The notes beneath the pieces were generated by a model. That model did not search any database, was not told the origin of the DNA, and worked only from the letters and a program-made list of their open reading frames with translations. Positions 1 to 47,200 of a stretch of 64,000 nucleotides of DNA are shown piece after piece (position 1 is the first letter of the stretch; each line of letters begins with the position of its first letter). This DNA is from Laetmonice hystrix (lineage: Eukaryota). The translations under genes were made by a program, and so were the position numbers. The stretch lies in the NCBI GenBank assembly GCA_965235115.1, contig OZ249436.1, forward strand, positions 4,466,001 through 4,530,000. Direction: 5' to 3'.

Positions 1-2982
1 TCACAGCATTTTCCACCCAACCGTTCACGAACGGCCTTGAACAGCGCCTTCTCAACCTTGGTCCGTTCTCGGATGTACTCGCGGGTTGAGAAAATTATTG
101 CTGTGTTCTGAAATGAAGATATGATCTGTAGATCCTCTGTCTGTAGAACGAGAATTATCCTCTTAAAAAGACAATTAATAAGAATAAACCTGTTGGCGCA
201 TATTTAACTAAAGGGAACTTGCATATACACTATAAACCTCCCTATGCTATTCGCAAACTCAGACTCCCGGGGGATAGTTTAACCCGATGCAACATTGCTG
301 ATAGTCCACCTTCATAGCATCCAGCGCGCTCGCGTAGAGGATATTCCTGTAGGCCAGGTCAAAGTTGTTGTGCAGTTCACGGAGTTGATGGGGACGCAGA
401 AAGTACCGAACGTAAACGGTTATTCCAATCTGACCAATGAATAGAAAATAACACTGATACAACTTCAAGACTGCAAAAAAAAATCACGACAATGCCTAAT
501 ACCAGAGATATACTTAGAGATGAAGGACTTGCAGTATTTGGAACATAATTTTGACGTAGGCCAGCTATAATCTTGATCATTATTATAGTAGATTTATGTC
601 TGTCACCTATTGCATAAGGATACCGCGTCCGCTATTTCTTACATGAAATGATAACCGTCTACACCACAAAGAGCTTGCCAGTATTGCTAATGCATGGTGT
701 GCCGTTCTTTTATAAATAAGCTTGTCACACTTGTGGCTTGCCATTCGTAGAGCGTCAAACTTGTGGCTTGCCACTCGCAGAGCGTCAAACTTGTGGCTTG
801 CCACTCGCAGAGTGTCAAGCTTGTGGCATGCCGCTCGTAGAGCGTCAAACTTGTGGCTTGCCACTCGTAGTGTCAAACATGTGGCTTGCCACTCGTAGAG
901 CGTCAAACTTGTGGTTTGCCACGCGTAGAGTGTCAAACTTGTGGTTTGCCACGCGTAGAGTGTCAAACTTGTGGCTTGCCATTCGCAGAGTGTCAAACTT
1001 GTGGCTTGCCACTCGTTGAGCGCAAACTTGTGGCTTGCCACTCGTTGAGCGTCAAACTTGTGGCTTGCCACTCGTAGTGCCAAACTTGTGGTTTGCCACG
1101 CGTAGAGTGTCAAACTTGTGGCTTGCCACTCGCAGAGTGTCAAACTTGTGGCTTGCCACTCGTGGAGTGTCAAAAACTTGTGGCTTGCCACTCGCGGAGT
1201 GTCAAACTTGTGGCTTGCCACTCGCAGAGTGTCAAACTTGTGGCTTGCCACTCGTGGAGTGTCAAACTTGTGGCTTGCCACTCGTGGAATGTCAAACTTG
1301 TGGCTTGCCACTCGTAGAGTGTCAAACTTGTGGCTTGCCACTCGTGGAGTCTTACCTGGAGTCGGTCTTTCGTAGCAATCTTAATTCCCCGGAACTGCTC
1401 ATTGTGCGAGTAGGCCCGGAACAATTTGAATTCCTTGTCAGGACCAATCAGATACCTCCCTGTAAAGTAAACCTTACTCGTGTCCACGGCCCCAGTCGTC
1501 CGGCTACGTATGAAACCCATCTACACAGAATCACATTTAGTCACATTAGTCATTTCTGGCAACTTTCGCCTTCCCTCCAGATGCCGGGAATTATTTTTCC
1601 CCTTCAAAATTCAAAAACTTTATGCGGGAGGCCACTGCATGTTCGCATCGCGCCTTTGGTGCCCGAGTGTATGGAATTCCGGCGACGACATGCGGGATGC
1701 GAGATGCGAGAAGCCAGATGGGACCAGCGAGATGCAACAAGCGACATGCTACCAGCGAGATGCTACCAGCGAGTTGCGAGAAGCGATTTCATTCTTCTAT
1801 CGCAGCGCATGCAAGCTACAGGAGAATGAAATCGCTTCTCACAACTCGCTGAATCTCGCTGGTAGCATGTCGCTTGTTGCATCTCGCTGGTCCCATCTCG
1901 CTTCTCGCTTCTCGCATGTCGTCGCCGGTATATTTTCACGACGGATTGTCCGAAAAAACCCTGAGCCCCCCCCCCTGCCTCTTAAAGCTATGGATATGGA
2001 ATAAAAGTAATAATGTGGTTTTTGTCCTATCATGACCACAATTTTTAGTTTGGGACTGGCTATTGACACTAACACGGAAACGGCCGACCTAAATTAGTTT
2101 GACTAATTCCGACACGAAACTGGGTGTTTGGGTTAGGGTAAAGGTTAGACCTAGGGTTAGTGTTAGTTTAGTCCCAAAATTGTTGTTAAACAGGCGCTAA
2201 TTTGATGTCGGTGTTTATAAGAAACATTCTATTTGCTATTGACACTGCTCGGTCCATGTCGCTTCGCATCTCGCATCTCGCTGGTCCCATGTCGCTTGTT
2301 GCATGTCGCTTCTCGCATCTCGCTGGCCCCATGTCGCTTTTTGTATCTCGCATCCCGCATGTCGTCGCCGGTATTCCATACGAGTGTATGGAATACCGGC
2401 GACGACATGCGAGAAGCGACATGGGACCGAATAGTGTCAATTTAGCACATAGAATGTTTCTTATTGACACCGATATCACGATCCACGTGCCTATTTAACA
2501 ATAGCATAATTTGGGGGCTAAACTTTTCCTAAAGTGAAAACTAACACTAACCCTAGGCATAACCTTTACCCTAACCCAAACACACTGTCTCGCATCTCGC
2601 ATGTCGTCGCCGGTATTCCATACGAGTGCGCCCCCCTTCGCACCCGTATCCGTCCCTGTTTTGCAGGCTATGTACAAACAAATACGTCAGTAGGTGCCCT
2701 TTGAGAAGACCCTGAACCCCACCCTTCAAGAAACCCAGGATCCGCGCCGGTTATCTAACAAATGTAGCCTGTTTTATGAAACATATGGTTAGGACATTCA
2801 GAACCTTAAGGGCGACCCTGTATAGTATATTTAGTAGGCCTACTGCATGGAGGCAAACATTAACGTTATCTTACCTCATGGTATTCCACGCCAGAAAAGC
2901 TGACTCCTAATAGTACACAGCCCACCAGGACCAGAGCACAGCACACCAAAACGATAAATCCCTTGAGACATCCTCGCTTCAT
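1..2982 (-). CDS. SPFH/Band-7 domain membrane protein, paralog A (3' part runs off the window start)
   Basis: Exons read by hand with GT-AG ends: 2982-2875 (MKRGCLKGFIVLVCCALVLVGCVLLGVSFSGVEYHE, N-terminal TM), 1520-1356 (MGFIRSRTTGAVDTSKVYFTGRYLIGPDKEFKLF...ATKDRLQ), 429-310 (IGITVYVRYFLRPHQL...ALDAMK), 107-<1 (NTAIIFSTREYIRERTKVEKALFKAVRERLGGKCC). Exon 2 and 3 sizes (165, 120) and phases match paralogs B-D. Confidence 0.85.
730..1351. repeat. 30-bp minisatellite (~21 copies) abutting the exon 2 donor of gene A
   Basis: Unit gtcaaacttgtggcttgccactcgtagagt; ends at the GTAAG donor (1355-1351). Confidence 0.95.
1660..2625. mobile_element. Nested palindromic/MITE-like repeats
   Basis: ccggcgacgacatgcg...cgcatgtcgtcgccgg inverted pairs (about 1679-1928, 2357-2411, again at 2598-2613), plus a longer imperfect inverted repeat about 2122-2270 vs 2410-2585. 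Confidence 0.6.
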
Positions 2983-13959: not shown

Positions 13960-14934
13960 ACACTTAGTTCAGTGGACTAGATATTGTTGACACTTAGTTC
14001 AGTGGACCAGATATTGACACTTAGTTCAGTGGACCAGATATTTATTGTTGACACTTAGTTCAGTGGACCAGATATATATTGTTGACACTTAGTTCAGTGG
14101 ACCAGATATTTATTGTTGACACTTAGTTCAGTGGACCAGATATTTATTGTTGACACTTAGTTCAGTGGACCAGATATTTATTGTTGACACTTAGTTCAGT
14201 GGACCAGATATTTATTGTTGACACTTAGTTCAGTGGACCAGATATTTATTGTTGACACTTAGTTCAGTGGACCAGATATATATTGTTGACACTTAGTTCA
14301 GTGGACCAGATATTTATTGTTGACACTTAGTTCAGTGGACCAGATATATATTGTTGACACTTAGTTCAGTGGACCAGACATTTATTGTTGACACTTAGTT
14401 CAGTGGACCAGACATTTATTGTTGACACTTAGTTCAGTGGACCAGATATATATTGTTGACACTTAGTTCAGTGGACCAGATATTTATTGTTGACACTTAG
14501 TTCAGTGGACCAGATATTTATTGTTGACACTTAGTTCAGTGGACCAGATATTTATTGTTGACACTTAGTTCAGTGGACCAGATATTTATTGTTGACACTT
14601 AGTTCAGTGGACCAGATATTTATTGTTGACACTTAGTTCAGTGGACCAGATATTTATTGTTGACACTTAGTTCAGTGGACCAGATATTTATTGTTGACAC
14701 TTAGTTCAGTGGACCAGATATTTATTGTTGACACTTAGTTCAGTGGACCAGATATTTATTGTTGACACTTAGTTCAGTGGACCAGATATTTATTGTTGAC
14801 ACTTAGTTCAGTGGACCAGATATTTATTGTTGACACTTAGTTCAGTGGACCAGACATTTATTGTTGACACTTAGTTCAGTGGACGACCAAATATATATTG
14901 ACACTTAGTTCAGTGGACCAGATATATATTGTTG
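13960..14934. repeat. 34-bp minisatellite (~28 copies) derived from the last codons and stop of gene B
   Basis: Unit acacttagttcagtggaccagatatttattgttg; the terminal copy is the coding QQYISGPLN*. Confidence 0.95.
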
Positions 14935-17900
14935 AAAGTCGATAGCCAACTTCACTTGGTTTTGTTTTCTCAATGTCCTCAGATAATCAAAAGTCGCCTG
15001 CTGTGAATCCATAGTGATGTTGAGCTCATTGTAGAGATACTTGAGACCGTCACTGCGAGCTTTCTCCACGATTGCCTTGGCTGTGGCTGTGGCTTTCGCT
15101 TGAAGTAGATTAGACTGGGCTGCGGCGTTCTGACTGATCTCTAAGGCAGCATTCTCTGCTTGCTTGACCTGAAGGCAGAGTAACATTTAGTATTCAGACA
15201 ATGTGCCGCCTCCGGGGGGATGTCAACTATTATGCACGATAGACTTAAGGACAAGTGCTAGTGTGAGGCCAAAAAAAATTTTTAGACAGATTTTTTTTTT
15301 TAAATTTTGCAGATAAATTTCTATTTGTCATAACGGTCTTCAAGTTATAGAAGTGGTTAAAAAAAAGTTTGATTTTGAACATTTTCACTTTTGCTCATTT
15401 CCACCAGTGAAAATGTTCAAAGTCAAAATTTTTTTCCCTTTTTTTACCACTTCTATTTGTCATAACACCGTTCTGACAAAAAAAAGTGGTTAAAAAAAGA
15501 GAAAAATTGTCTTCATTAACATGAAGAAAATACCAACTTCAAACGCTCTTAAAAAAACTAAGCCGGCGAGGTATCATTTTTTTGCTGAATTTTGAAAGAG
15601 GACAACATACTCTGTTTATCTGCAAAATTTAAAAAAAATCAAAATATTTTGGCCTCACACTAGCACTTGTCCTTAACCTGATCCACTACCGCGATTTCCC
15701 TTGCGACGGCCATGCGATTTTTGATTTTATGGTGGAATTTCACTCTGTAATTTTTCCTGGCTGGTCTTCCCTGTTTCTGGAAATGGGTTCCATCTTTTTA
15801 TCACAGTGAAATAAAAGGGTGATGTTAAATGTCGCAAAAGCAATCACCTTAATGGAAACAGCCCTTAAATCAAACTTCCAAATTTTATATTTCCCCGTGA
15901 CACGTGTACCATCAGATTTATCCTAATGAGGTTATCAGGAGAAACATGGCCGCAGACCGCAGCGACCTCTCTGGGCCATATCTTTGCCTTTACATAATAA
16001 TTCTGATCTACTAGATTTTTATTTAGGAAATCAACCCTGATAATAAAATATTAATTCCTTCCCATAAATCGGGCCTTTCTCGCTAGTTGATGGTATTTCG
16101 TCCCCTGTCGAGACGATATATATTGTTACATAATTAGCCCTACCAGCTGGTCCGACTCCTTTCTGACGATAATCGCAGTCTGGTAAAGTTTCTCCCTCTG
16201 GTTCTGCTCCTGTAAGACGAGCGCCTGGAGGTAGCGTTCGTTCAGTTCTGGAGGAATGCCGAGCTCGTGAAGTTGGAAATACCTGACCTCAGCAAACAGT
16301 GCCCAGTCTGACTCCGTGCACGAGTCGTATTGCTTACACCCCGGCGTGCACGGACCTGCAGCATAGATAGATAGGTCTACCACTGAAAAACACGAGTTAA
16401 CCGGTACGTCTACTCAAGTCAGGAACCTGTATAAGAAAAGAGACCCAGACCCTCCCCCCGCCCCCGGCCCCGATCATGTCTCTTGCCAACTTTTGATACA
16501 CACTTTTGTGGTGGGTCCAGGATTTCAGGGGGGCACCTTTTGGTGGATCATCAATGGCCCATTTTCGGGGGGCGTGGGGGTCCTCCACCAGAATTTTTTC
16601 AGAAACGTCGGGGACAAGTTTTCTGAAAGTTTTCATGGAAGTAACATTATGTTTTGACGGATACCGACGTGTTGCCTCATAGTTCAATCACCAACCGCTC
16701 GGAGCGCTACGATCGCAATGTTTCTGCAAACTAATTCGTTCGGAGCGCTGATCCCAACAAAACTGTTCCGGTGTCCCATATAGAAAGTACCCCATATAAT
16801 TTGTACTCTCCAGTACAAATTATATTATATAAAATGTACTCCCGGGAGTAGATTCTATATAGATAATAAGTACCCCCTTCATATAATTTGGACTCCCCTT
16901 CATATGGCAGAAGTATGGGGTGAGTTATATATGGGTGTATTATATATGGGGTTAGGGTTGGGTTAGGGTTAGGGTCAGTATTATCTAGATAATAGTTACT
17001 GGGGAGTACGTTTTATATGGGGAGTATATATTAGATGTCACACCGGCAGTGGCTTCATGTCAACAAAAGGTGGCTTCATGTCAACAATAGGTGGCTTCAT
17101 GTCAACAATAGGTGGCGGGGGGGGGGGGGTTCAGCCTATGACAGTTTATGAGAGAAAAACATAGAGTTTCCAGGAGTAGGAGAGGGGTAGAAATATCATG
17201 TCTAATTGAAAATGTTGTTTCAAATGTACCCCCCCAAAAAAACTCCCTTCCCCCAAAATTTTAATTGGCCTATAAAAAAGTAAAAGTAGTATGGAACTGT
17301 GGGCCCCCATCGTTCTTAGGGAGCCCCCCCCCCCCCCCCCGTCGTTAGTTCAAATTTCTTTTTTTTTCTTAAATACTCCTGGTCACCAGGGAGCTTATAA
17401 TAGGGGGCAAAATCAACGATTACCTTGGCCAACCTTCCCACAGTTCAGTTCGCAGCAACTCCCACCAAGCCTTTCCCGAAGAGCCTGAAACAGCGCGTCC
17501 TCGATCTTTTGTCGTTCTAAGAAATACTCTCGGTTGGTGAATAATGTAGCTTTGCTCTAAGCGAATAAAAACAGGATTATAATTATTTATGATGTTGAAC
17601 AATTATACGAGCATATTTAGTATTTTTGTTTTATATCATTTTGTTCTAGATATTTTATTTTTGTGTAGAAAACAATAGATCTCTACTGATAATATGAGTA
17701 GATTCTAACCTTGATGGCGTCACGGGCGTTCTTGCGCAGCACGGGGGCGTAGTGAAGGTCAAAGTTAGCGTGCAGGTATCGCAGCTGGTGAGGTCGGAGA
17801 AAATAGATCATGGTGGCTGAGATGGTCACCTGTGGAGGGGAGACAGTGATCACAATGAACCCATGTAGGTACGTCAGCTGGTGAGGTCGGTAAAAATAGA

Positions 17901-19113
17901 TCATGGTGGCTGAGATGGTCACCTGTGGAGGGGAGACAGTGATCACAATGAACCCATGTAGGTACGTCAGCTGGTGAGGTCGGTAAAAATAGATCATGGT
18001 GGCTGAGATGGTCACCTGTGGAGGGCAGACAGTGATCACAATGAACCCATGTAGGTACATCAGCTGGTGTGGTCGGAGAAAATAGATCATGGTGGCTGAG
18101 ATGGTCACCTGTGGAGGGGAGACAGTGATCACAATGAACTCATGTAGGTACGTCAGCTGGTGAGGTCGGTAAAAATAGATCATGGTGGCTGAGATGGTCA
18201 CCTGTGGAGGGCAGACAGTGATCACAATGAACCCATGTAGGTACGTCAGCTGGTGAGGTCGGTAAAAATAGATCATGGTGGCTGAGATGGTCATGCCCCC
18301 CATGCCCTCGTGGAGGGGGCAGACAAACGCCATTGTCCAAGATGAACACAAACAATAGGTTAGAAGGGGGGGGGGGGGTGTGCTCAATACTGGTCCTACC
18401 TCGAGTCGGTCGGCGTTGAAGACAGTCTGTCGAGAGAACACCTCGACATGCGCCTTGGCCGGGAAGATCTTGAACTCGTAGTCGGGTCCGGTCATATATC
18501 GACCTACTTGGTACACGTGGCTCACGTCTACACGTCCTGTCGTCCGGCGCCGTCGGAAACCCAGCTTAAGACATAATCGATTATTACCGCTTTTTCTATA
18601 TAACAAAGGCATTTAAAGATCATTTAACTCGATTAAAAGAAACATTGAGGGCGGGGGCCCCTTCCTAATTTGTGAATGGTAAAGGGGGATCGCTATTTTA
18701 CTCAAGCCAAAAGAACAACAAAAGCAACAACAACATTACAACAACAGCAGCAGCGGCATCAAGGAATCTAGCCAGAAATGCATTCCATTTACCACTAGCC
18801 TACCTGCCATATCAATACATAATATTCAATCACTTTAAGTGATTGATTAATTGATCTTTATCATTTCTGCCTTTGGATACGCTTACTCTTGAGGTGGTAC
18901 TTCCCCTCCTGAACATTTAGCAAGCATTTTTACCTGGGGGGCAGACCCCCCCCCCCCCCGCGCCGTACCCCCAGGAATCCCTGCCTTGAGGGGCGGTCTT
19001 ACCTCATAATACTCGATTCCATTGAAACTCATCGGCAATAACAGAATTAGAAGTAGAACCACTGCAGCAACCGCGATGGCAACTATAAATAAAATTTTCT
19101 TGACCTCCATCAT
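14905..19113 (-). CDS. SPFH/Band-7 domain membrane protein, paralog B (334 aa, 6 coding exons)
   Basis: Exons 19113-19003, 18564-18400, 17829-17710, 17556-17424, 16355-16144, 15168-14905 (111+165+120+133+212+264 nt). All introns are GT-AG and the joined frame is open to TAA. N-terminal TM, SPFH-like core (GRYMTGPDYEFKIFP; FNADRLEVTISATMIY; FTNREYFLERQKIEDALF; AEVRYFQL), Ala/Gln/Lys-rich coiled-coil tail. Confidence 0.88.
15249..15672. mobile_element. MITE with TTAA target duplication (Kolobok-like ends)
   Basis: TTAA|GGACAAGTGCTAGTGTGAGGCCAAAA ... TTTTGGCCTCACACTAGCACTTGTCC|TTAA. Confidence 0.85.
16768..17046. mobile_element. Palindromic MITE-like element with a short GGGTTA tract
   Basis: ccggtgt...acaccgg ends; internal inverted gtaccccatata / tatatggggagta motifs. 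Confidence 0.55.
17774..18293 (-). repeat. 93-bp tandem duplication of the acceptor plus 5' half of exon 3, gene B
   Basis: Acceptor AGs at 17830, 17923, 18016, 18109, 18202; each unit encodes 31 aa with no stop. Confidence 0.95.
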
Positions 19114-22343: not shown

Positions 22344-23280
22344 CCCTCAAACATTCACCACAAACTGACACGATCAGGTACATGATTGTCCCCTCAAACA
22401 TTCACAAACTGACACGATCAGGTACATGATTGTGCCCTCAAACATTCACCACAAACTGACACGATCAGGTACATGATTGTCCCGTCAAACATTCACCACA
22501 AACTGACACGATCAGGTACATGATTGTCCCCTCAAACATTCACAAACTGACACGATCAGGTACATGATTGTGCCCTCAAACATTCACCACATACTGACAC
22601 GATCAGGTACATGATTGTGCCCTCAAACATTCACCACAAACTGACACGATCAGGTACATGATTGTCCCCTCAAACATTCACCACAAACTGACACGATCAG
22701 GTACATGATTGTCCCCTCAAACATTCACCACAAACTGACACGATCAGGTACATGATTGTCCCCTCAAACATTCACCACAAACTGACACGATCAGGTACAT
22801 GATTGTCCCGTCAAACATTCACCACAAACTGACACGATCAGGTACATGATTGTCCCCTCAAACATTCACCACAAACTGACACGATCAGGTACATGATTGT
22901 CCGCTCAAACATTCACCACAAACTGACACGATCAGGTACATGATTGTCCACAGACATTGGCCCCGACATGTACTGTTGGTAGTCGATGACAGGAGGGGAA
23001 CAGGTACATGATTGTCCGCACAGATTGGCCCCGACATGTACTGTTGGTAGTCGATGACAGGAGGGGAACAGGTACATGATTGTCCACAGACATTGGCCCC
23101 GACATGTACTGTTGGTAGTCGATGACAGGAGGGGAACAGGTACATGATTGTCCGCACAGATTGGCCCCGACATGTACTGTTGGTAGTCGATGACAGGAGA
23201 GGATCAGGTACATGATTGCCCGCAGACTTGGTCACGGCCTTACTTCATTGGCCCCGACATGTACTGTTGGTAGTCGATGG
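22344..23280. repeat. Compound array downstream of gene C: 47-bp units, then ~68-bp units copying the terminal codons
   Basis: 47-mer ccctcaaacattcaccacaaactgacacgatcaggtacatgattgtc (~13 copies) grades, via the shared caggtacatgattgtcc, into 4 units containing ttggccccgacatgtactgttggtagtcgatg (= IDYQQYMSGP). Confidence 0.92.
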
Positions 23281-26200
23281 CCAGTTTCACTCTGTCTTGT
23301 TTTCTCATCGTTCTCAGATAGTCAAAGGCGGCACGATGTTCGTTTGAGGTGATTGCTAGCTCATTGTAGAGATACTTGAGACCGTCACTGCGAGCTTTCT
23401 CCACGATTGCCTTGGCTGTGGCTCTGGCTTTCGCCTGAAGTAGATTAGACTGGGCTGTGGCGTTCTGACTGATCTCTAAGGCAGCATTCTCTGTTTGTTT
23501 GACCTGGAAACACATGAGGCATCATGAGTACATCTCAGCGGATATGGAGGTGTGGCTGGGGCGGGTCCAGGATTTTGGTAGGGGGGGGGGGGGGGGGGGG
23601 GGTTAAGGGGGATAAGCAGTACCAGAATAAGAGTGCGTATCTTCAGTGTACAAAATTAATGATTAACTCTTCAAGTCTTGGCCAGGATGTTTTCTGATAG
23701 TATTCATTTCTTATATAAATGATCCGGAACTGACACGGTTGGGTCCTTTTGTTGCAAGCTTTCAGCTTCCCAGCTTCTCAAAAGCCTGGAGAGCCCACTG
23801 GACTTGTGCCTAAAATACATTTACAATGTACATAGTCATTTTACACCGTCATTTTACATTTTAGTAAATAGTGAAATACGTACCAGTTGGTCTGTTTCCT
23901 TTCTGATAATCGTTCCAGTCTGGAACAGCAACTCCTTCTGATTCTCCTCCTGTAGGACGAGCGCCTGGAGGTAGCGTTCGTTCAGCTCTCGAGGAATGCC
24001 GAGCTCGTGAAGTTGGAAATACCTGACCTCGGCAAACAGTGCCCAGTCTGACTCCGTGCACGAGTCGTATTGCTTACACCCCGGCGTGCACGGACCTAAA
24101 CACATGGTGACAAACAAAATACATGGTTACTTTGTGATGGAATACATAGATCAGGAGTAGAACCCATTGATGCCCTCAGTACATGATGAGTAGATCAGGA
24201 GTAGAACCCATTGATGCCCTCAGAACATGATGAGTAGATCAGAACCCATTGATGCCCTCAGTACATGATGAGTAGATCAGAACCCATTGATGCCCTCAGT
24301 ACATGATGAGTAGATCAGAACCCATTGATGCCCTCAGTACATGATGAGTAGATCAGGAGTAGAACCCATTGATGCCCTCAGTACATGATGAGTAGATCAG
24401 GAGTAGAACCCATTGATGTCCTCAGTACATGATGAGTAGATCAGGAGTAGAACCCATTGATGCCCTCAGTACATGATGAGTAGATCAGGAGTAGATCCCA
24501 TTGATGCCCTCAGTACATGGTGAGTAGATCAGGAGTAGAACCCATTGATGCCCTCAGTACATGATGAGTAGATCAGAACCCATTGATGCCCTCAGTACAT
24601 GATGAGTAGATCAGGAGTAGAACCCATTGATGCCCTCAGTACATGATGAGTAGATCAGGAGTAGAACCCATTGATGTCCTCAGTACATGATGAGTAGATC
24701 AGGAGTAGAACCCATTGATGCCCTCAGTACATGATGAGTAGATCAGGAGTAGATCCCATTGATGCCCTCAGTACATGGTGAGTAGATCAGGAGTAGAACC
24801 CATTGATGCCCTCAGTACATGATGAGTAGATCAGAACCCATTGATGCCCTCAGTACATGATGAGTAGATCAGAACTCATTGATGCCCTCAGTACATGATG
24901 AGTAGATCAGAACCCATTGATGCCCTCAGTACATGATGAGTAGATCAGAACCCATTGATGCCCTCAGTACATGATGAGTAGATCAGAACCCATTGATGCC
25001 CTCAGTACATGATGAGTAGATCAGAACCCATTGATGCCCTCAGTACATGATGAGTAGATCAGGAGTAGAACCCATTGATGCCCTCAGTACATGATGAGAT
25101 CAGGAGTAGAACCCATTGATGCCCTCAGTACATGATGAGTAGATCATGAGTAGAACCCATTGATGCCCTCAGTACCTGATGCGTCTAACCACCATGTGGT
25201 GCGCCATTTGCCCTTTTTATGACTAAAACGGGAACTTGTCAGTGTGAAGGTGGAGCCTATCGGAGGACAGGGCGTGTGCACGTGTTTATAGTTTTACCAA
25301 ATAACAGAAGTTGCAAGCATAAACTATTAAGGACGTTTGTCACCTTGGCCAACCTTCCAACAGTTGAGTTCGCAGCATCTCCCGCCAAGTCGCTCCTTGA
25401 CGGCCTTAAAGAGGGCGTCCTCAATCTTCTGGCGTTCAGATATGTACTCACGGTTGCTGAATAGCGTTGCGGTGCCCTGGATGGAAATGTTAAAACAAAA
25501 TGATGCGAATATAATAACCTGAAAACTTGGTTTGTCTTTCTTAAAGGTGCTATTCGTCTCTCACAGAATGGCATTTCTCCTATCATACATTGTGCACATA
25601 GTACTAGAAAAAATTCCTACCGATACCATTGGCCTGATAAACCTTCTATTAGTTTGTGTGCAGCATTTGAAACCTATCTCGGTGCGCACCGAGATAGAGC
25701 CATTTCCTATGGTGAGGCGTGTCAGGGTCTCCACAGGCCTTCTGAGAGAGCCCCATTTGTGCCGTTATCCATGAAAAATTTTGATTTCCTTTGTTGTGAA
25801 TCTATTTCCATGATAGGTGGGATCACATAAACGTCAACAAAATTAAAAATAAAAAAAATGAATTTTTGTTCACGAATAGCACCTTTAAACCTACAGCAAA
25901 AGTTCCTCACTAACGTACCTTTGAACACCAGTAACAACATACAAAGTGTCTAAGGTCACACCGATAAGTGGAACACTGTCTACGGCGACTTTCTAAAAAT
26001 ACCGCCCGGGTCATTCCCTATTTCCCACGCGAGACAGCGGGAGCTATATCTATTAATAGATTGAGATAAGGGCCAAATAGGGTAAACAAACCGACAAAGC
26101 CAGCGGGAGAATGTCTCTACATTGCGGTTGATTATTCCTTTATTAAAGATCAAACCATCACAGAATTGTAGGTAAGAACAAGCTTGTTCATGCTGAACAC

Positions 26201-28855
26201 CCTTATATTTATAGTTTGAACTTTTCTATTCCCTATAAGGAAAATAGATACTTTTACTAACCTTGATGGCGTCCCGGGCGTTCTTGCGCAGCACGGGGGC
26301 GTAGTGAAGGTCAAAGTTAGCGTGTAGGTATCGCAGCTGGTGAGGTCGGAGAAAATAGATCATGGTGGCTGAGATGGTCACCTGTGGAGGGGAGACATGA
26401 TCACAATGAACCCATGTAGGTACGTCAGCTGGTGAGGTCGGTAAAAATAGATCATGGTGGCTGAGATGGTCACCTGTGGAGGGGAGACAGTGATCACAAT
26501 GAACCCATGTAGGTACGTCAGCTGGTGAGGTCGGAGAAAATAGATCATGGTGGCTGAGATGGTCACCTGTGGAGGGGAGACAGTGATCACAATGAACCCA
26601 TGTAGGTACGTCAGCTGGTGAGGTCGGTAAAAATAGATCATGGTGGCTGAGATGGTCACCTGTGGAGGGGAGACAGTGATCACAATGAACCCATGTAGGT
26701 ATCGCAGCTGGGGAGTTCGGAAGAGCTGGTCAGCCTTGATCATCACGCCCTCTGTTTACATACGCCAGACAAGAGGCATATTGAGAGACGGGCGCCCTAG
26801 TCTGAAGAGATGGTCAACTATATGAGAGGGGGGGGGGGGGCAGTTATTTTCATTTTTAAATTTCTTGCCTGTGTCAGTGTTTCATTGATATTTTCCTGTG
26901 GTTCCTGTGGTGAAAAAAGGGAATCTTACAGAGAATCTTACAGGGTCGTTATAAGGGGGTGCGCCCCAGAACCCCCACTGCCCGCCCTCACCTGGACCCC
27001 CCCCCCCCCCCCCCCCCCCCGCTGACTCACCTCGAGACGGTCGGCGTTAAAGACCCGTTGCCGAGTAAAGATTTCCACCTGGGCGTCGGCCGGGAACACT
27101 TTGAACTCGTAATCTGGTCCGATCAGGTGGCGTCCAGTCTGGTACACCTTGCTCGTGTCCACTGTACCCGTCGTCCGCCGACGTTTAAACCCCAGCTGGA
27201 AGGGACACCAACACCTCAGTACAGGGTCAGGCAATAGGGAGGGACACCAACACCTCAGTACAGGGTCAGGCAATAGGAAGGGACACCAACACCTCAGTAC
27301 AGGGTCAGGCAATAGGAAGGGACACCAACACCTCAGTACAGGGTCAGGCAATAGGAAGGGACACCAACACCTCAGTACAGGGTCAGGCAATAGGAAGGGA
27401 CACCAACACCTCAGTATGGGATCAGGCAATAGGAAGGAACAATAACACCTCAGTACATGGTCAGGCAATAGGAAGGGACACCAACACCTCAGTACATGGT
27501 CAGGCAATAGGAAGGGACACCAACACCTCAGTACAGGGTCGGGCAATAGGAAGGGACACCAACACCTCAGTACACGGTCAGGCAAGGGTCAGGCAATAGG
27601 AAGGGACACCAACACCTCAGTACAGGGTCAGGCAATAGGAAGGGACACCAACACCTCAGCACAGGGTCAGGCAATAGGAAGGAACAATAACACCTCAGTA
27701 CAGGGTCAGGCAAGGGTCAGGCAATAGGAAGGGACACCAACACCTCAGTACAGGGTCAGGCAATAGGAAGGGACACCAACACCTCAGTACAGGGTCAGGC
27801 AATAGGAAGGAACAATAACACCTCAGTACAGGGTCAGGCAATAGGAAGGGACACCAACGCCTCAGTACGGGGTCAGGCAATAGGAAGGGACACCAACACC
27901 TCAGTACAGGGTCAGGCAATAGGAAGGGACATCAACACCTCAGTACAGGGTCAGGCAATAGGAAGGGACACCAACACCTCAATACAGGGTCAGGCAATAG
28001 GAAGGGACACCAACACCTCAGTACAGGGTCAGGCAATAGGAAGGGACACCAACACCTCAGTACAGGGTCAGGCAATAGGAAGGGACACCAACACCTCAGT
28101 ACAGGGTCAGGCAATAGGAAGGGACACCAACACCTCAGTACAGGGTCAGGCAATAGGAAGGAACAATAACACCTCAGTACAGGGTCAGGCAATAGGAAGG
28201 GACACCAACGCCTCAGTACGGGGTCAGGCAATAGGAAGGGACACCAACACCTCAGTACAGGGTCAGGCAATAGGAAGGGACATCAACACCTCAGTACAGG
28301 GTCAGGCAATAGGAAGGGACACCAACACCTCAATACAGGGTCAGGCAATAGGAAGGGACACCAACACCTCAGTACAGGGTCAGGCAATAGGAAGGGACAC
28401 CAACACCTCAGTACAGGGTTCGGCAATAGGAAGGGACACCAACACCTCAGTACAGGGTCAGGCAATAGGAAGGGACACCAACACCTCAGTACAGGGTCAG
28501 GCAATAGGAAGGGACACCAACACCTCAGTACACGGTCAGGCAATAGGAAGGGACACCAACACCTCAGTATGGGATCAGGCAATAGGAAGGGGCACCAACA
28601 CCTCAGTACAGGGTCAGGCAATAGGAAGGGGCCCTTCCCTTCTGTCTAATCGTTTAGTGTTAAACGACGTATTTTCAATGAAGTTGTATCCAAACATTAG
28701 AAGGATCTCCCCCCCCCCCCCGCCCATCCCAGGTGTTTTCTCACCTGGCTGTATTCCACTCCCACGAAGCTCATAGGTAGGATGACGACAATGAGCATGG
28801 CCACCACGCCCACCCCGATCCCAATGAGTGTAAGACACCTCTGAGTGTCACCCAT
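23240..28855 (-). CDS. SPFH/Band-7 domain membrane protein, paralog C (334 aa, 6 coding exons)
   Basis: Exons 28855-28745, 27195-27031, 26381-26262, 25476-25344, 24095-23884, 23503-23240; sizes and phases identical to paralog B; frame open to TAA. An acceptor at 28874-28875 just upstream of the ATG implies a further non-coding exon (candidate donor at 29397). Confidence 0.88.
24146..25175. repeat. Minisatellite with long and short unit variants, intron 4 of gene C
   Basis: Unit agatc(aggagt)agaacccattgatgccctcagtacatgatgagt; ends ~50 bp from the exon 5 acceptor. Confidence 0.95.
25545..25884. mobile_element. MITE with TTAA target duplication (Kolobok-like ends)
   Basis: TTAA|AGGTGCTATTCGT ... 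ACGAATAGCACCT|TTAA. Confidence 0.8.
26325..26718 (-). repeat. 93-bp tandem duplication of the acceptor plus 5' half of exon 3, gene C
   Basis: Acceptor AGs at 26382, 26474, 26567, 26660; same unit as in gene B; the exon-proximal unit is 92 bp. Confidence 0.95.
27198..28630. repeat. 39-bp minisatellite (~36 copies) filling intron 1 of gene C up to the exon 2 acceptor
   Basis: Unit ggaagggacaccaacacctcagtacagggtcaggcaata; the last copy supplies the pyrimidine tract tgtcccttccag. Confidence 0.95.
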
Positions 28856-34877: not shown

Positions 34878-35109
34878 GGTCAGGACTCACTTCATTAGTC
34901 AGGACTCACTTCATTGGCCAGGACTCACTTCTTTGGTCAGGACTCACTTCATTAGTCAGGACTCATTTCATTGGTCAGGACTGACTTCATTGGTCAGGAC
35001 TGACTTCATTGGTCAGGACTCACTTCATTGGTCAGGACTCACTTCATTAGTCAGGACTCACTTCATTGGTCAGAACTCACTTCATTGGTCAGAACTCACT
35101 TCATTGGTC
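34878..35109. repeat. 19-bp minisatellite (~12 copies) derived from the stop region of gene D
   Basis: Unit ggtcaggactcacttcatt; the reverse strand repeats CCA ATG AAG TGA (PMK*). Confidence 0.93.
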
Positions 35110-38100
35110 CAGCGAAGTACTGATTGTAACCCACTGCCAGTCTCACTTGGCCCTGGTTCTTCAATGTCCGTAAGTAATCAAAGGCAGACTTCTGGGCAGG
35201 GTCCGCAATGCCTAGCTCTTTGAACAGGTTCTTCAGGCCAGAGCTCCGAGCCTGTTCTACGATGGCTTTCGCTTTGGCCTGGACCTTGGACGAGATGAGC
35301 CGCGAAAGGGCTGTGGCATTCTGGCTGATTTCCAGTGCATCGTTTTCGATCTTTCTAGCCTGATGGAAATAAAATACCACACACTGAAATACGGGAAGCA
35401 TTGCCTTATTCATCAGCTTTACAATGAATCTATTCCGCTTTGTGTCTGACGGTATGCCATAACATGAGAAAGCAGAGAACAGTACAAGGCACATTTAGGC
35501 GCCGGAACTTGGGGAGCAAGGGGGCAATGACCCCCAACTGTCAAGCGGGTGGGGTGGGGGCTTTGTAATGTCATACCAAGAGGTCCGTCTCCTTGCGGGC
35601 GATCTGCGCGTCTTGTTTGAGTTGCTCGGTCTGATCAGCCTCCTTCAGCACGATTGACTGCAGGTAGCGTCGGTTGAGCTCGTTCGGGATCTGAAGCTCG
35701 TGCAGCTGGAAGTAGCGCACCTCGGCGTTCAGACCCGCCTCCCCAACCGTACAGTTCATGTAGGGCACACAGCCCGGCCTACAGTCACCTGGAAATCCAT
35801 CACCAGTCCGAGTCCGGTTACACTTCCGGTTTACGTTCCCGTTTCCATGGACGCAGTCTCTCATTTGGAAACAGGAAAAATATCCATAAGAAAACTATCC
35901 ATGGAAACGGCTCTTTATGTTGACAAATGATTATCTGCTTGTGATCATTACATAACTAGCTGACTTCTATAGAGTTATTGAAGACACGCAACGGAAAATG
36001 AAGTCTTACCATCCTGACAATCTTTCTCACAACAAGATCCGCCAAGTCTCTGCCTGACAGCCTCAAACAGCCTCTTCTCCACATCGTCACGTTTACGGAT
36101 ATACTCGCGGGTTGTAAACAAGGTGGCGGCTCCCTGCGTGCAGGTTATATTATTGTAACGTTTACGGATATACTCGCGGGTTGTAAACAAGGTGGCGGCT
36201 CCCTGTGTGCAGGTTATATTATTGTAACGTTTACGGATATACTCGCGGGTTGTAAACAAGGTGGCGGCTCCCTGTGTGCAGGTTATATTATTGTAACGTT
36301 TACGGATATACTCGCGGGTTGTAAACAAGGTGGCGACTCCCTGTGTGCAGGTTATATTATTGTAACGTTTACGGATATACTCGCGGGTTGTAAACAAGGT
36401 GGCGGCTCCCTGCGTGCAGGTTATATTATTGTAACCATAGAAGCAGTAAATGTTTACCCACAGAAATAGAAAAATCTAATGAAATTCAGCATTCCAGTTG
36501 CCTGTTGCCGCCATGCAGCGAACGTCTCATGGCAGGTTGTTGGCCTGGCATTGACTTGAACAGCTAATGAAATTCATCGGGTGATGCATTTGACTGGAGT
36601 AATTAAAATGAGAGATACTTGCTGATTGCTTTATACATACATCCTTGCTTACCTTCAGGGCGTCGACGGCATTGTTTTTGAGGATCGGTCGGTAGTGGAT
36701 GTCAAACCTTTCATGTAAGATCGGTAGTTGATCTCTTCTCAGGAAATACTGCATGGAAGCCGTGATCTCAACCTGAGGAGGGAGGATCAGTTTGTGACAC
36801 AATTACTGGATAAACATTCGTGTCATAATATCTGTGACACAATGTATAAATTACTAGATAAACATTGGTGTTATAATATCTGTGACACAATGTATAAATT
36901 ACTAGATAAACATTGGTGTTATAATATCTGTGACACAATGTATACATTACTAGATAAACATTGGTGTTACAATATCTGTGACACAATGTATAAATTACTA
37001 GATAAACATTGGTGTTATAATATCTGTGACACAATGTATAAATTATTGGATAAACATTGGTGTTATAATATCTGTGACACAGTGTATAAATTATTGGATA
37101 AACATTGGTGTTATAATATCTGTGACACAATGTATAAATTACTAGATAAACATTGGTGTTATAATATCTGTGACACAATGTATAAATTACTAGATAAACA
37201 TTGGTGTTATAATATCTGTGACACAATGTATAAATTACTAGATAAACATTGGTGTTATAATATCTGTGACACAATGTATAAATTACTAGATAAACATTGG
37301 TGTTATAATATCTGTGACACAATGTATAAATTACTAGATAAACATTGGTGTTATAATATCTGTGACACAATGTATAAATTACTAGATAAACATTGGTGTT
37401 ATAATATCTGTGACACAATGTATAAATTACTAGATAAACATTGGTGTTATAATATCTGTGACACAATGTATAAATTACGAGATAAACATTGGTGTTATAA
37501 TATCTGTGACACAATGTATAAATTACTAGATAAACATTGGTGTTATAATATCTGTGACACAATGTATAAATTACTAGATAAACATTGGTGTTATAATATC
37601 TGTGACACAATGTATAAATTACTAGATAAACATTTGTGTTATAATATCTGTGACACAATGTATAAATTATTGGATAAACATTGGTGTTATAATATCTGTG
37701 ACACAATGTATAAATTACTAGATAAACATTGGTGTTATAATATCTGTGACACAATGTATAAATTACTAGATAAACATTGGTGTTATAATATCTGTGACAC
37801 AATGTATAAATTACTAGATAAACATTGGTGTTATAATATCTGTGACACAATGTATAAATTACTAGATAAACATTGGTGTTATAATATCTGTGACACAATG
37901 TATAAATTACTAGATAAACATTCGTGTTATAATATCTGTGACACAATGTATAAATTACGAGATAAACATTCGTGTTATAATATCTGTGACACAATGTATA
38001 AATTACTAGATAAACATTGGTGTTATAATATCTGTGACACAATGTATAAATTACTAGATAAACATTGGTGTTATAATATCTGTGACACAATGTATAAATT

Positions 38101-39484
38101 ACGAGATAAACATTCGTGTTATAATATCTGTGACACAATGTATAAATTACGAGATAAACATTCGTGTTATAATATCTGTGACACAATGTATAAATTATTG
38201 GATAAACATTGGTGTTATAATATCTGTGACACAATGTATAAATTACTAGATAAGCATTCGTGTTATAATATCTGTGACACAATGTATAAATTACTAGATA
38301 AACATTCGTGTTATAATATCTGTGACACAATGTATAAATTACGAGATAAACATTCGTGTTATAATATCTGTGACACAATGTATAAATTACTAGATAAACA
38401 TTGGTGTTATAATATCTGTGACACAATGTATAAATTACGAGATAAACATTGGTGTTATAATATCTGTGACACAATGTATAAATTACGAGATAAACATTGG
38501 TGTTATAATATCTGTGACACAATGTATAAATTACTGGATAAACATTCGTGTTATAATATCTGTGACACAATGTATAAATTACTAGATAAACATTTGTGTT
38601 ATAATATCTGTGACACAATGTATAAATTATTGGATAAACATTGGTGTTATAATATCTGTGACACAATGTATAAATTACTAGATAAACATTCGTGTTATAA
38701 TATCTGTGACACAATGTATAAATTACTGGATAAACATTGGTGTTATAATATCTGTGACACAATGTATAAATTACTAGATAAACATTCGTGTTATAATATC
38801 TGTGACACAATGTATAAATTACTGGATAAACATTGGTGTTATAATATCTGTGACACAATGTATAAATTACTAGATAAACATTCGTGTTATAATATCTATA
38901 TCAATGAAAGTGACGAATTGGTAAGAAACTGATCAGTAACCGACCTGTAACCTGTCAGCCGCGAACACCTGTATTTTATTGAAGGACTCGAAGTGAGCAT
39001 CGGCTGGGAAGACTTTGAACTCGTAGTCGGGTCCGATGAGGTGGAGGCCCCCGCTGTAGACGTGTTTGATGTCCACCTCGCCAGTCGTCTTACGGCGACG
39101 GAACCCGTACTAAACATGAGGCCAAAACAAAGACTTCATCTCTTATTTGTAATATAATTGTTATTACAAAGCGTAAGCACAGTCGTAAGGTCATAAAGCG
39201 ACAAGAGATGATTAAAATTACAAAGAATTAATTTGCCTTAGCAATCTGAGAGTACAATGGCAGTAGGAATACAACCATTGATATTAAGAAATAAATCATT
39301 TGTCTTTTTACAATTGATAAATCGCCTGTGTATGGGAGTTTGAGTCACTTACCTGGTAGTATTCGAGCCTGCCAAAACTGAGGGGTACGAGGATGAGAGT
39401 GAGAACGAGGCCGACACCGAGGACAATCAGCACGATACAGAGTACGACCTTTGAGGGTGATCTCGAGATCTCTGACTCCGCCAT
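35096..39484 (-). CDS. SPFH/Band-7 domain membrane protein, paralog D (338 aa, 6 coding exons)
   Basis: Exons 39484-39353, 39109-38945, 36772-36653, 36133-36010, 35788-35577, 35359-35096 (132+165+120+124+212+264 nt), GT-AG, open to TGA. Clear homology to B and C in every exon (YGFRRRKTTGEVD...GPDYEFKVFP; AEVRYFQLHEL; AFDYLRTL). Confidence 0.88.
36089..36436 (-). repeat. 69-bp tandem duplication of the acceptor plus 5' part of exon 4, gene D
   Basis: Acceptor AGs at 36134, 36203, 36272, 36341, 36410; in-frame 23-aa unit YNNITCTQGAATLFTTREYIRKR. Confidence 0.95.
36793..38897. repeat. 48-bp minisatellite (~44 copies) filling intron 2 of gene D
   Basis: Unit tgtgacacaatgtataaattactagataaacattggtgttataatatc; occupies ~2.1 kb of a 2.17-kb intron. 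Confidence 0.96.
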
Positions 39485-43079: not shown

Positions 43080-43168
43080 CTAATTACATCATATCATGCA
43101 AGCTATATTTCCTCTAGGTTTAATGTTTTAATGAGTGACATGCAGGTAAAAGCAGTTACTTTGAACTC

Positions 43169-44233
43169 CTGTATACACACCTGTTAATCGATACTTCTGT
43201 AACCTTTTAGGAGACGTGAAGATGGCGGAGAATGTGGCAAAGATTGCTGTGTTAGCAGCGGTAGTCGCTGTGGCCCTGTATACACACCTGTTAATTGATA
43301 CCTCTGTAACCTTTTAGGAGACGTGAGGATGGCGGAGAATGTGGCAAAGATTGCTGTGTTAGCAGCGGTAGTCGCTGTGGCCCTGTATACACACCTGTTA
43401 ATTGATACCTCTGTAACCTTTTAGGAGACGTGAGGATGGCGGAGAATGTGGCAAAGATTGCTGTGTTAGCAGCGGTAGTCGTTGTGGCCCTGTATACACA
43501 CCTGTTAATCGATACCTCTGTAACCTTTCAGGACGTGAAGATGACGGAGAATGTGGCAAAGATTGCTGTGTTAGCAGCGGTGGTCGTTGTGGCCCTGTAT
43601 ACACACCTGTTAATCGATACCTCTGTAACCTTTCAGGACGTGAAGATGACGGAGAATGTGGCAAAGATTGCTGTGTTAGCAGCGGTGGTCGCTGTGGCCC
43701 TGTATACACACCTGTTAATTGATACCTCTGTAACCTTTTAGGAGACGTGAGGATGGCGGAGAATGTGGCAAAGATTGCTGTGTTAGCAGCGGTGGTCGCT
43801 GTGGCCCTGTATACACACCTGTTAATTGATACCTCTGTAACCTTTCAGGAGACGTGAAGATGGCGGAGAATGTGGCAAAGATTGCTGTGTTAGCAGCGGT
43901 GGTCGCTGTGGCCCTGTATACACACCTGTTAATCGATACCTCTGTAACCTTTCAGGACGTGAAGATGACGGAGAATGTGGCAAAGATTGCTGTGTTAGCA
44001 GCGGTAGTCGTTGTGGCCCTGTATACACACCTGTTAATCGATACCTCTGTAACCTTTCAGGACGTGAAGATGACGGAGAATGTGGCAAAGATTGCTGTGT
44101 TAGCAGCGGTGGTCGCTGTGGCCCTGTATACACACCTGTTAATCGATACTTCTGTAACCTTTCAGGAGACGGGAAGATGACGGAGCATGTGGCAAAGATT
44201 GCTGTGTTAGCAGCGGTAGTCGCTGTGGCCCTG
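43169..44233 (+). repeat. Ten 105/107-bp copies of the acceptor, ATG and first ~19 codons of gene E
   Basis: ATGs at 43222, 43329, 43436, 43541, 43646, 43753, 43860, 43965, 44070, 44177. Confidence 0.95.
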
Positions 44234-47200
44234 CTAACCATCAGCTTGCTCGCTGTGTCTTTAGAAAAACTAAATTCCGATGAAGGTTTGTTACTGAATT
44301 ATTTAATTGCCATAACGACTTTGATATCTTTGTTATCCACAACTGGATGTCAGAGAAACCATATACTATATACTCTGCACTAGGGGATTCAGAGGGGGGG
44401 GGGGCAGGGGACCCGGTCCCCCTTATATTTTCCTTCTTTTTATGAAGATGTTATGACTATATTTGAATAATATATAGTATATGAATAATTAAAAACAATT
44501 AAAAGTGTGTTAATAGCAATTATTTTGTGTGTGTAATACAGGCACAATCAAATCATGCCAAGCATAGCGAGGCTAACATTTTTTGGCTGTGTGTGCCCCT
44601 TCCCCCTTATCAAAATCCTGGACCCCCCCCCCCCCCCCCACACTGCTCTGTTATCTTTCCGCACGGGCAATGATAGATGAACTATTTGTTTGATTTTCAG
44701 TTGCGTTAATGTATGACACAGTCAGTAAAAGTCTGGACGAGAAGCCGCGGTACGAAGGTCTGCACAATGGACCACCCGGCTTCGAGTTCATCGTCTTCCC
44801 GTCAGTCTTCAGGACGTACGAGTTCTCAGCCCTCACGGTAGGCGGCGCTACAATCATCTTATTCACCCTGGCCCAAAAGTCGTATATGAAAGAACTATAG
44901 AAAGATGGCAATTGGTCTAAATATCTCTGTTTATATGTATATGTTTTCTATAGTATAGCACTTTGTTTACTCAAGGTAACGTTGGCACGTACAATTTCTT
45001 GAAGGACAGTGTTCTTCTTGAAAGACAGTCCATAAAGTAGAACACCATTGTATATAATATTGAAAAGGGAAATGATAAATGGAAAAGTAACAGTTTCCCA
45101 TTAATAATCGTGCAGTAATTCTCGAATAAAATCCATGAGTTCAGCCAAGGTGGGTTGGTGCAACTAAATACTGGCGATGGGTCATACCGGAGACAGTCGA
45201 GCTGAGCGTCCGTATCTAGCTCAGGCGGACTTGAATCCAGGTGGAAATTTATGCCAGGAGGGATATAGACGCCCACGTGGTCCTTGTTATAAACTAAGCC
45301 TAACATATAATACACCTAACCACTGGGATTGACATGACCCGTGACGTCAAGCGACAGAGATCGGGGTTATTTGTAAGTCGAGTATTGGGGTGCGTTTAAT
45401 CTACAGTCCACAAACTACATTGTATTTCGTACCATAGGTCGGTATGCTTACAGGTCTGACATAATAAAAACCCGCTCGATGGAAAATTCCCATCGATGAC
45501 TAAAATAGGGACTATAAAGGCGTTGAAAGCGGACTCATTTTAAGGCACTCCCGTTTCTCCTCCCGCTTCGCTGCCCATAGTAATTCATCATTCAGTCGGT
45601 CCAAATATGTAGGCCTGTTGTAGATGCCAACTTGAATTATGTTATTTTTGGCGTAGAAAACGTTTGAAAACCTGGCATCCTTATAGATACCTCAATAAGT
45701 TGTCGTAATGAAGAACGTAGACCGATTCATTATATAAGTGGCCACTCCCGATAACTCACATCGTGGTTTTACGATGGGTTGACTCATCAATGTCAACTAT
45801 TGCCACCAGATGGCAGCACACTTCTGCAGTGCCCGCCGTATCATGGTGTTGTCATGTCGATGTTTGTTCCCGCAGTGTTTGCCCTATCTTGGTGTTGTCA
45901 TGTCGGTGTTTGTGTCCGCAGTGTTTGCCCTATCATGGTGTTGTCATATCGATGTTTGTGTCCGCAGTGTTTGCCCTATCATGGTGGTCTCATATATCGA
46001 TGTTTGTGTCCGCAGTGTTTGCCCTATCATGGTGTTCTCATATATCGATGTTTGTGTCCGCAGTGTTTGCCCTATCATGGTGTTGTCATGTCGATGTTTG
46101 TGTCCGCAGTGTTTGCCCTATCATGGTATTGTCATATATCGATGTTTGTGTCCGCAGTGTTTGCCCTATCATGGTGTTGTCATGTCGATGTTTGTGTCCG
46201 CAGTGTTTGCCCTATCATGGTGTTGTCATGTCGATGTTTGTGTCCGCAGTGTTTGCCCTATCATGGTATTGTCATATATCGATGTTTGTGTCCGCAGTGT
46301 TTGCCCTATCATGGTGGTCTCATATATCGATGTTTGTGTCCGCAGTGTTTGCCCTATCATGGTGTTGTCATATCGATGTTTGTGTCCGCAGTGTTTGCCC
46401 TATCATGGTGTTGTCATATCGATGTTTGTGACCGCAGTGTTTGCCGTATCATGGTGTTGTCATATCAATGTTTGTGTCCGCAGTGTTTGCCCTATCATGG
46501 TGTTGTCATGTCGATGTTTGTGTCCCCAGTGTTTGCCCTATCATGGTGTTGTCATGTCGATGTTTGTGTCCGCAGTGTTTGCTCTATCATGGTGTTGTCA
46601 TGTCGATGTTTGTGTCCGCAGTGTTTGCTCTATCATGGTGTTGTCATATCGATGTTTGTGTCCGCAGTGTTTGCCCTATCATGGTGTTGTCATGTCGATG
46701 TTTGTGTCCGCAGTGTTTGCCCTATCATGGTGTTGTCATATCGATGTTTGTGTCCGCAGTGTTTGCCCTATCATGGTGTTGTCATATCGATGTTTGTGTC
46801 CGCAGTGTTTGCCCTATCATGGTGGTCTCATATATCGATGTTTGTGTCCGCAGTGTTTGCCCTATCATGGTGGTCTCATATATCGATGTTTGTGTCCGCA
46901 GTGTTTGCCCTATCATGGTATTGTCATGTCGATGTTTGTGTCCGCAGTGTTTGCCCTATCATGGTGTTGTCATGTCGATGTTTGTGTCCGCAGTGTTTTC
47001 CCTATCATATGATGTTGTCATATCGATGTTTGTGTCCGCAGTGTTTGCCCTATCATGGTATTGTCATGTCGATGTTTGTGTCCGCAGTGTTTGCCCTATC
47101 ATGGTGTTGTCATATCGATGTTTGTGTCCGCAGTGTTTGCCCTATCATGGTGTTGTCATATCGATGTTTGTGTCCGCAGTGTTTGCCCTATCATGGTGTT

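Follow-up and report, generated by a model that had tools for sequence, protein, structure and literature searches.

The window, i.e., the whole 64,000-nucleotide stretch of Laetmonice hystrix DNA analyzed here, holds a cluster of five genes, of which A to D encode type-1 proteins and E encodes a type-2 protein. Gene models were built from splice signals, window peptides were obtained by six-frame translation, and gene A was completed from L001, a stretch that adjoins the window; the features are as follows (window coordinates unless L001 is named).

1-2982, minus strand: gene A, exons 1-4, the rest lying in L001; 335 amino acids
L001 5738-5527 and L001 5348-5079: exons 5 and 6 of gene A
From 17 on into L001, minus strand: insert of gene A, with exon 4 extending to L001 9975
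14905-19113, minus strand: gene B, six exons, 334 amino acids
19113-19003, 18564-18400, 17829-17710, 17556-17424, 16355-16144 and 15168-14905, minus strand: the exons of gene B
17424-17466, minus strand: first half of the gene B insert at the end of exon 4, with G-x-C1-C2-x3-C3 and the start of the variable loop
16356-17423, minus strand: intron 4 of gene B, 1068 bases, GT..AG, phase 1, inside the variable C3-C4 loop
16291-16355, minus strand: second half of the gene B insert at the start of exon 5, with C4-x3-C5-x5-C6 and the conserved D-x-G
23240-28855, minus strand: gene C, six exons, 334 amino acids; insert at 25386-25344 and 24095-24031
35096-39484, minus strand: gene D, six exons, 338 amino acids; insert in two parts, at 36043-36010 and from 35788 on, its loop being 4 residues long
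44177-54057, plus strand: gene E (type 2), 304 amino acids, no insert
53061-53096, plus strand: short turn of gene E at the insert site
50505-50507 and 52995-52997, plus strand: cysteines C83 and C135 of gene E, at the erlin disulfide positions

In these models, genes A to D each have six exons with the same phases (0,0,0,1,0) and no internal stop, and the identity among their products is 45-78%, as compared to 22-27% between A to D and E in the N-terminal half. Each of the five proteins has one hydrophobic helix, and for gene B a homolog model suggests a single N-terminal membrane helix followed by SPFH1, SPFH2 with the insert, and a coiled coil. Gene E lies head to head with D, with divergent transcription and 4.7 kb between the start codons. 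Searches of the 627-Mb genome (35 contigs) found type-1 genes only as these four copies, all in this cluster, and a single E-type locus. Splicing of A to D is predicted from splice signals and homologs; a search for L. hystrix RNA found none, and three sequencing runs cover the introns with no exon-exon joint among the rows listed, so that these runs behave as DNA and are uninformative on splicing.

All peptides quoted in the original prediction were recovered from the window by six-frame translation, and the gene models bear out that a six-cysteine insert is present in A to D, missing from E, and split in all four genes by a phase-1 intron between C3 and C4. The insert consensus is CC-x3-C-x(4-7)-C-x3-C-x5-C, with cysteine spacings of 0,3,7,3,5 in A, B, and C and 0,3,4,3,5 in D. 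An x-PG element that had been written into the motif does not belong there, as A has other residues at this place and P and G occur only 13 and 22 times, respectively, over 58 aligned rows; among the aligned homologs the glycine ahead of C1-C2 is invariant and the D-x-G past C6 is well kept. Outside the insert and the membrane helix, cysteine accounts for 32 of 13,203 residues, which gives a probability of about 3e-10 for six cysteines in 35 residues; together with the recurrence of the pattern across phyla, this excludes a chance origin. The insert is thus a real, ancient, and subfamily-defining cystine insert in an SPFH lineage. The CC-C-C-C-C cysteine order is also that of conotoxin framework IV, a likeness in order only, as the framework IV spacing differs and the conotoxin is a secreted peptide while the insert is a loop within a membrane protein.

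Homologs were collected in two rounds. An earlier word-index search with exon 5 alone had given 13 candidates, none of them scored; a profile of the four exon-5 peptides (HMMER scan, 1.84 billion representatives) then identified 147 proteins, and a second profile from 19 full-length matches found 20, of which 14 were new, for a total of 161. The insert site is spanned on both flanks in 54 of these, and the insert is present in 49 and missing from five, a share that is inflated since three of the cysteines were part of the first query. Among the 49 carriers, 34 have six insert cysteines, 11 have eight, one has seven, two have five, and one has three; exactly six or eight are hence found in 45, and two of the four odd counts look like faulty gene models. 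The carriers comprise cnidarians, molluscs, a bryozoan, a starfish, a hemichordate, and lancelets (i.e., Nematostella, Rhopilema, Argonauta, Aplysia, Babylonia, Saccostrea, Solemya, Dreissena, Mactra, Watersipora, Asterias, Saccoglossus, and Branchiostoma), from which we infer an insert that dates back at least to the split between cnidarians and bilaterians. Vertebrates and ecdysozoans do not appear among the named matches, a statement about named matches from which absence in those groups does not follow. The profile search proposed at the outset for the taxonomic range hence establishes an insert that is shared across phyla rather than local, while the share of carriers stays biased by the query.

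All named carriers are annotated only as uncharacterised or hypothetical. The invertebrate Band 7 domain-containing proteins XP_005096860.1, XP_048580354.1, XP_033629658.1, and XP_077862988.1, themselves named just "uncharacterized" or "hypothetical", carry the same insert at the same position and are the A to D family itself. Literature searches, whose scope left most subscription journals and supplements outside (proteomic tables may hold members), found no description of an insert-bearing SPFH family or of six member identifiers, and the main text of PMC13409769 held no match. Within the scope of these searches, A to D belong to an undescribed SPFH subfamily, which is neither erlin nor prohibitin.

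A tree built by a quick method with the insert removed (62 rows, rows with fewer than 230 core residues excluded) separated type 1 from type 2 with an SH-aLRT of 100. The original prediction had used E as the insert-less yardstick; as E falls in a separate deep clade, the proper comparison is instead with the five insert-less homologs, which are environmental sequences and group with type 1 rather than with E, on branches that are long or unresolved. These five may be non-animal, since the ESM Atlas has a ciliate-dominated cluster of look-alikes; with their branch placement and lack of names, a single gain of the insert in animals does not follow from the tree. A 12-row clade within the tree, with named members that are all molluscan (it includes P0125, P0128, P0135, P0137, P0139, P0146, P0167, and P0168), has N-tails 110-490 residues long that often bear PY motifs, and its inserts mostly contain eight cysteines; with one member as query, no separate copy turned up in the L. 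hystrix genome. Short frames with an unbroken insert, some starting just ahead of it, were seen in P0087, P0101, P0104, and P0134, and if these frames come from genomic DNA the intron within the insert would be lineage-specific.

All structure models were made on homologs rather than on the window's own spliced proteins. The AlphaFold model of P0160 (49 sequences), a homolog with 54-55% identity to B, C, and D, has a mean pLDDT of 92 and consists of an N-terminal helix, SPFH1, SPFH2, and an 85-residue helix. Its insert (residues 162-193, pLDDT 84-92) is flanked by a helix (145-161) and a strand (194-205), so that the position that had been predicted, between the last SPFH2 helix and strand, holds in the model of this 54%-identical homolog. 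With the curated cut-off of Pfam PF01145, 28 of 35 homologs scored above the cut-off, two below, and five had no match; P0160 scored 34.3 bits, and among eight single window exons the only match, to an E exon, was below the cut-off. Foldseek matched the P0160 model to HflC, erlins, and prohibitins at E-values of 2e-13 to 2e-12, VIA-align superposed residues 70-207 on the SPFH domain of an archaeal stomatin (Z 12.0, rmsd 2.4, 106 aligned), and both tools together group the model with HflC, erlins, prohibitins, flotillin, and stomatin. A to D are therefore predicted to belong to the SPFH / Band 7 superfamily, with an SPFH1-SPFH2-coiled-coil fold as found in the homolog model.

For the insert on its own, Pfam had no family at E-values up to 10 for five short insert-bearing proteins, the ESM Atlas had no usable match, and an 87-residue insert-bearing model (pLDDT 66), which barely probes the insert, had no Foldseek match at E-values up to 10 and a best VIA-align Z of 2.8, mostly over a helix. 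These searches are weak tests, also of kinship with known small disulfide-rich domains (knottins, conotoxin frameworks, twin CX3C), and neither an absence of relatives nor a new fold follows from them; structure prediction and Foldseek, as proposed for the insert at the outset, hence gave an insert that is ordered in the homolog model but has no fold match. From the order of strand and helix, the turn that bears the insert would lie at the membrane-proximal end of SPFH2; the available portions of bioRxiv 2025.06.14.659634, PMC13724742, and bioRxiv 2024.08.09.604662 make no mention of the cage face on which such a turn lies.

Several signals suggest that A to D are type II, non-cytosolic SPFH proteins (i.e., with a cytosolic N-terminus and the rest luminal or extracellular), although the signals are not independent across related sequences. 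The N-side of the membrane helix is more positive than the other side in 41 of 44 insert-bearing rows, equal in two, and less positive in one. All five N-glycosylation sequons named in the original prediction were found, and a coiled-coil sequon is present in all 47 rows with a full segment, as compared to 24 (maximum 34) over 500 shuffles; in one sequon column, x-S/T follows 24 of 28 Asn but only 2 of 20 other residues, whereas a second column shows no such coupling (16/21 vs 20/25). PY motifs bind cytosolic WW domains of Nedd4-type ligases, and [LP]PxY is found in 10 of 16 long N-tails (0.94 over 1000 shuffles, maximum 5); the N-tails of A to D themselves are short and have no PY motif. None of 58 rows ends in a KDEL-like motif.

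Erlins provide the closest precedent for such a topology, as erlin1/2 has been described, in bioRxiv 2025.06.14.659634, as a glycosylated ER-luminal 13:13 heteromeric cage with one disulfide per subunit (C78-C130 and C76-C128, by cryo-EM, in the ER lumen). The type-1 proteins share with erlin1/2 (PDB 9VVJ, 9VVG, 9O9U) the N-terminal membrane helix, SPFH1, SPFH2, and long coiled coil, and the P0160 model matches erlin with a Foldseek E-value of 3.6e-13 and a VIA-align Z of 13.4 (rmsd 9.8, 258 aligned); the two differ in that identity is just 14-18% and in that type 1 has the insert, the coiled-coil sequons, and, in some members, long PY-bearing N-tails. The erlin cysteine pair is not among the common type-1 residues at the corresponding columns. 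We considered and rejected erlin orthology of type 1 and type 2, as their profiles match erlins at E-values of 0.85 or worse, or not at all; a true erlin is encoded by the same genome (L014-L016), on the same contig about 1.2 Mb from E, with a match to human erlin-2 at 2e-20 over 40 amino acids.

Gene E, on the other hand, belongs to a family (E plus 51 of 55 matches, after four partial or distant rows were dropped) in which two cysteine positions are conserved (51 and 52 of 52 rows), as is a sequon (41 of 52). These cysteines are 52 residues apart, as in the erlin disulfide, in a context like that of this genome's erlin, and their coincidence with the erlin disulfide positions supports a non-cytosolic topology. 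E itself carries an N-T-S sequon and the cysteine pair although the genome has a true erlin.

The bacterial periplasmic two-subunit cage HflK/HflC, which partners FtsH, offers a second comparison. HflC is about 36-38 residues longer than type 2 between the membrane helix and the last SPFH2 strand, and presumably these extra residues form an unmodelled loop at the same turn as the insert. HflC (PDB 7VHQ) is the top Foldseek match of P0160 (2.1e-13), yet it is only 14% identical to type 1, and the compared part of the HflC segment has no cysteine. The available part of bioRxiv 2024.08.09.604662 has nothing on this HflC loop.

With regard to the cysteines, C3 and C4 probably form a disulfide that closes a loop: both are missing from Rhopilema proteins that keep the other four cysteines, and, in six-cysteine forms with canonical spacing, only the C3-C4 gap varies (3 to 22 residues) while the other gaps are nearly constant. 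The P0160 model contains isolated bridge residues at C1 and just past C5, which recur in a second, lower-confidence model; if mutually paired, they would place C2 opposite C5 and leave C1-C6. A nested pairing of C3-C4, C2-C5, and C1-C6, based on one natural double loss and this secondary-structure hint, is hence most likely. P0086, with C3 missing and a new cysteine past C6, fits this scheme poorly and allows for other pairings. Extra insert cysteines arise in pairs, although the homolog counts are not independent, coming as they do from related sequences found with a profile that held three of the cysteines. The three-disulfide mini-domain on a type II, non-cytosolic SPFH protein that had been proposed thus gains indirect support from even cysteine counts, paired loss of C3 and C4, charge bias, conserved sequons, and PY motifs, whereas its ligand-binding part does not.

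Taken together, we consider it fairly likely that the insert is a three-disulfide knob on type II, non-cytosolic, erlin-like cage subunits that probably alternate with E, a reading in which sequence, conservation, range, and the predicted fold and position are shown, whereas we infer splicing, topology, disulfides and their pairing, cage, heteromer, location on the cage, and partner binding. A to D would associate laterally, by way of SPFH1, SPFH2, and the long coiled coil, to form a membrane-attached cage like those of erlin1/2 and HflK/C, in which they would probably alternate with the E-type subunit. The insert would form a hairpin of about 32 residues from the last helix to the last strand of SPFH2, stapled by three disulfides, with C3-C4 closing a loop of free length and C2-C5 and C1-C6 at the stem. 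A knob would project from every type-1 subunit near the SPFH1/SPFH2 hinge, yielding a ring of knobs on the cage, of which the conserved C5-C6 side may dock a membrane partner or a neighboring cage while the C3-C4 loop drifts. Docking would be the likeliest job of the knob, carrying about half of the weight of this reading; otherwise the knob would be mainly structural.

The cage is probably heteromeric with E. A complex model with P0160 and the type-2 homolog P0176 as a side-by-side dimer scored 0.61 (best control 0.01), and three runs shared at least 92% of contacts, with a partner pLDDT of 81. The contacts are spread over SPFH1, SPFH2, coiled coil, and C-terminus; insert residues 162-193 have no listed contact, where unlisted means uncertain rather than excluded. 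Of microbial pairs, 51 of 78 solved and 2 of 108 mismatched ones attained the mark used for such scores, as did 39 of 65 and 2 of 126 eukaryotic pairs, respectively; as the model combines different species, uses no alignments, covers one side only, and does not separate heteromer from homomer, its score appears to reflect likeness to solved SPFH cages more than binding.

A bolder extension, which we put forward tentatively and regard as doubtful, is that most invertebrate phyla have a two-subunit cage, built of type 1 with the cystine knob and type 2 with the erlin-like disulfide, that leaves the ER, faces the outside or the endosome lumen, is turned over through PY motifs and Nedd4-type ligases, and uses its knobs to select receptors, channels, or outside ligands. 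To our knowledge, the animal plasma-membrane SPFH cages (stomatin, flotillin, and podocin) are all on the cytosolic leaflet, and an outward-facing plasma-membrane SPFH cage would, if true, represent a new topology. SPFH cages are being solved rapidly while their cargo selection is poorly understood, and this subfamily offers a module that is part of the protein, can be deleted, and would occupy one fixed place in the cage wall, with natural insert-less relatives as controls. Should the knob be merely structural, the gain would be one of annotation, with a definable new pair of SPFH subfamilies.

Among other readings, a disulfide-bonded, diversified ligand- or pathogen-binding knob, with the tandem A to D as a set of specificities, fares best but seems unlikely. 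The four tandem paralogs, the widely varying loop length, the higher variability of non-cysteine insert positions (2.96 bits, vs 1.97 for SPFH and 2.17 for the coiled coil), and the PY motifs, which hint at post-ER trafficking, would fit diversification; a relaxed surface loop, however, would vary as much, and the genome holds just four type-1 copies. Moreover, over 35 insert codons B and C differ by two synonymous and two replacement changes, as compared to 14 and 8 over the 31 codons just upstream, and such near-identity beside a diverged flank indicates homogenisation, not diversification, at least in the B/C pair. The variable ligand-binding knob of the original prediction hence finds no support.

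Metal binding by the insert cysteines, at a small structural or buffering site for zinc or another metal, is somewhat less probable still than diversification. Eight-cysteine forms do have CxxC and CC-x2-CC patterns and often histidines past C6, and even cysteine counts would fit metal sites too, but none of the six cysteine columns has a histidine in any of the 49 carriers, six-cysteine forms have x3 spacing and mostly no histidine, and sequons and charge bias place the insert domain in an oxidising compartment.

We find it hardly credible that A to D are prohibitin-like proteins of the inner mitochondrial membrane with two C-x3-C pairs oxidised in the intermembrane space. Prohibitins are mitochondrial, and in the intermembrane space Mia40 oxidises substrates with a twin CX3C motif, which C2-x3-C3 and C4-x3-C5 resemble. 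Prohibitin 1/2 (PDB 8RRH, 9O9Z), a heteromeric single-pass cage, is the best sequence-profile match of type 1 (best PDB matches, E-value 9e-6) and leads the structural comparison (Z 16.1, rmsd 6.8, 206 aligned). The profile match, though, ends at the start of the insert, HflC and erlin rank equally high by Foldseek, the modelled insert has no helix-loop-helix, and conserved sequons and PY-bearing tails argue against a mitochondrial protein. Orthology of A to D to prohibitins was rejected, as identity is just 16-18% and the genome has separate prohibitin-like exons at other loci (L012, L013).

Equally far-fetched are palmitoylation, known from flotillin and stomatin scaffolds, of a cytosol-facing scaffold, for which the vicinal CC near the presumed membrane-proximal end of SPFH2 would be suited but which requires fewer than six fixed cysteines and runs opposite to the topology signals, and an artefact of wrongly predicted A to D junctions, as full-length homologs of 329-338 amino acids carry the joined insert on contigs 1.1-1.7 kb long, which resemble spliced transcripts, the complete insert of P0134 lies in a single frame on a contig of 1.4 Mb, and skipping exon 4 or 5 alone would cause a frameshift while skipping both would stay in frame with much of SPFH2 gone.

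Genes B and C form a mosaic: synonymous differences are almost missing from exon 3, from the insert (whose halves are separated by intron 4, which does not align), and from the first half of exon 6, while exons 1, 2, and the remainder are diverged. This looks like gene conversion in tracts, and a cDNA template could account for the tract that covers two exons without the intron. Minisatellites in the window (17774-18293, 26323-26722, 36089-36435, and 43168-44233) and in L001 (5698-7376 and 8919-9758) duplicate exon borders together with their splice acceptors. The units measure 93 bases at exon 3 in both B and C and 107 bases at exon 1 in E; exon 4 of D has five in-frame copies of a 69-base unit, and a 63-base unit with the acceptor and cysteine codons of exon 5 of A recurs about 27 times. 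The upstream acceptors could lengthen the proteins or the insert of A. P0228, a distant insert-less SPFH protein from a 7.9-kb contig with 28% identity to the type-2 query, falls with type 2 in the tree, at the end of a long branch, and is possibly of prokaryotic origin. Finally, window positions 15234-15801 in intron 5 of B have a contig depth of 13,000-190,000, as compared to about 50 in single-copy parts, and show opposite-strand joints; this segment is a high-copy repeat, possibly a small inverted-repeat transposon.
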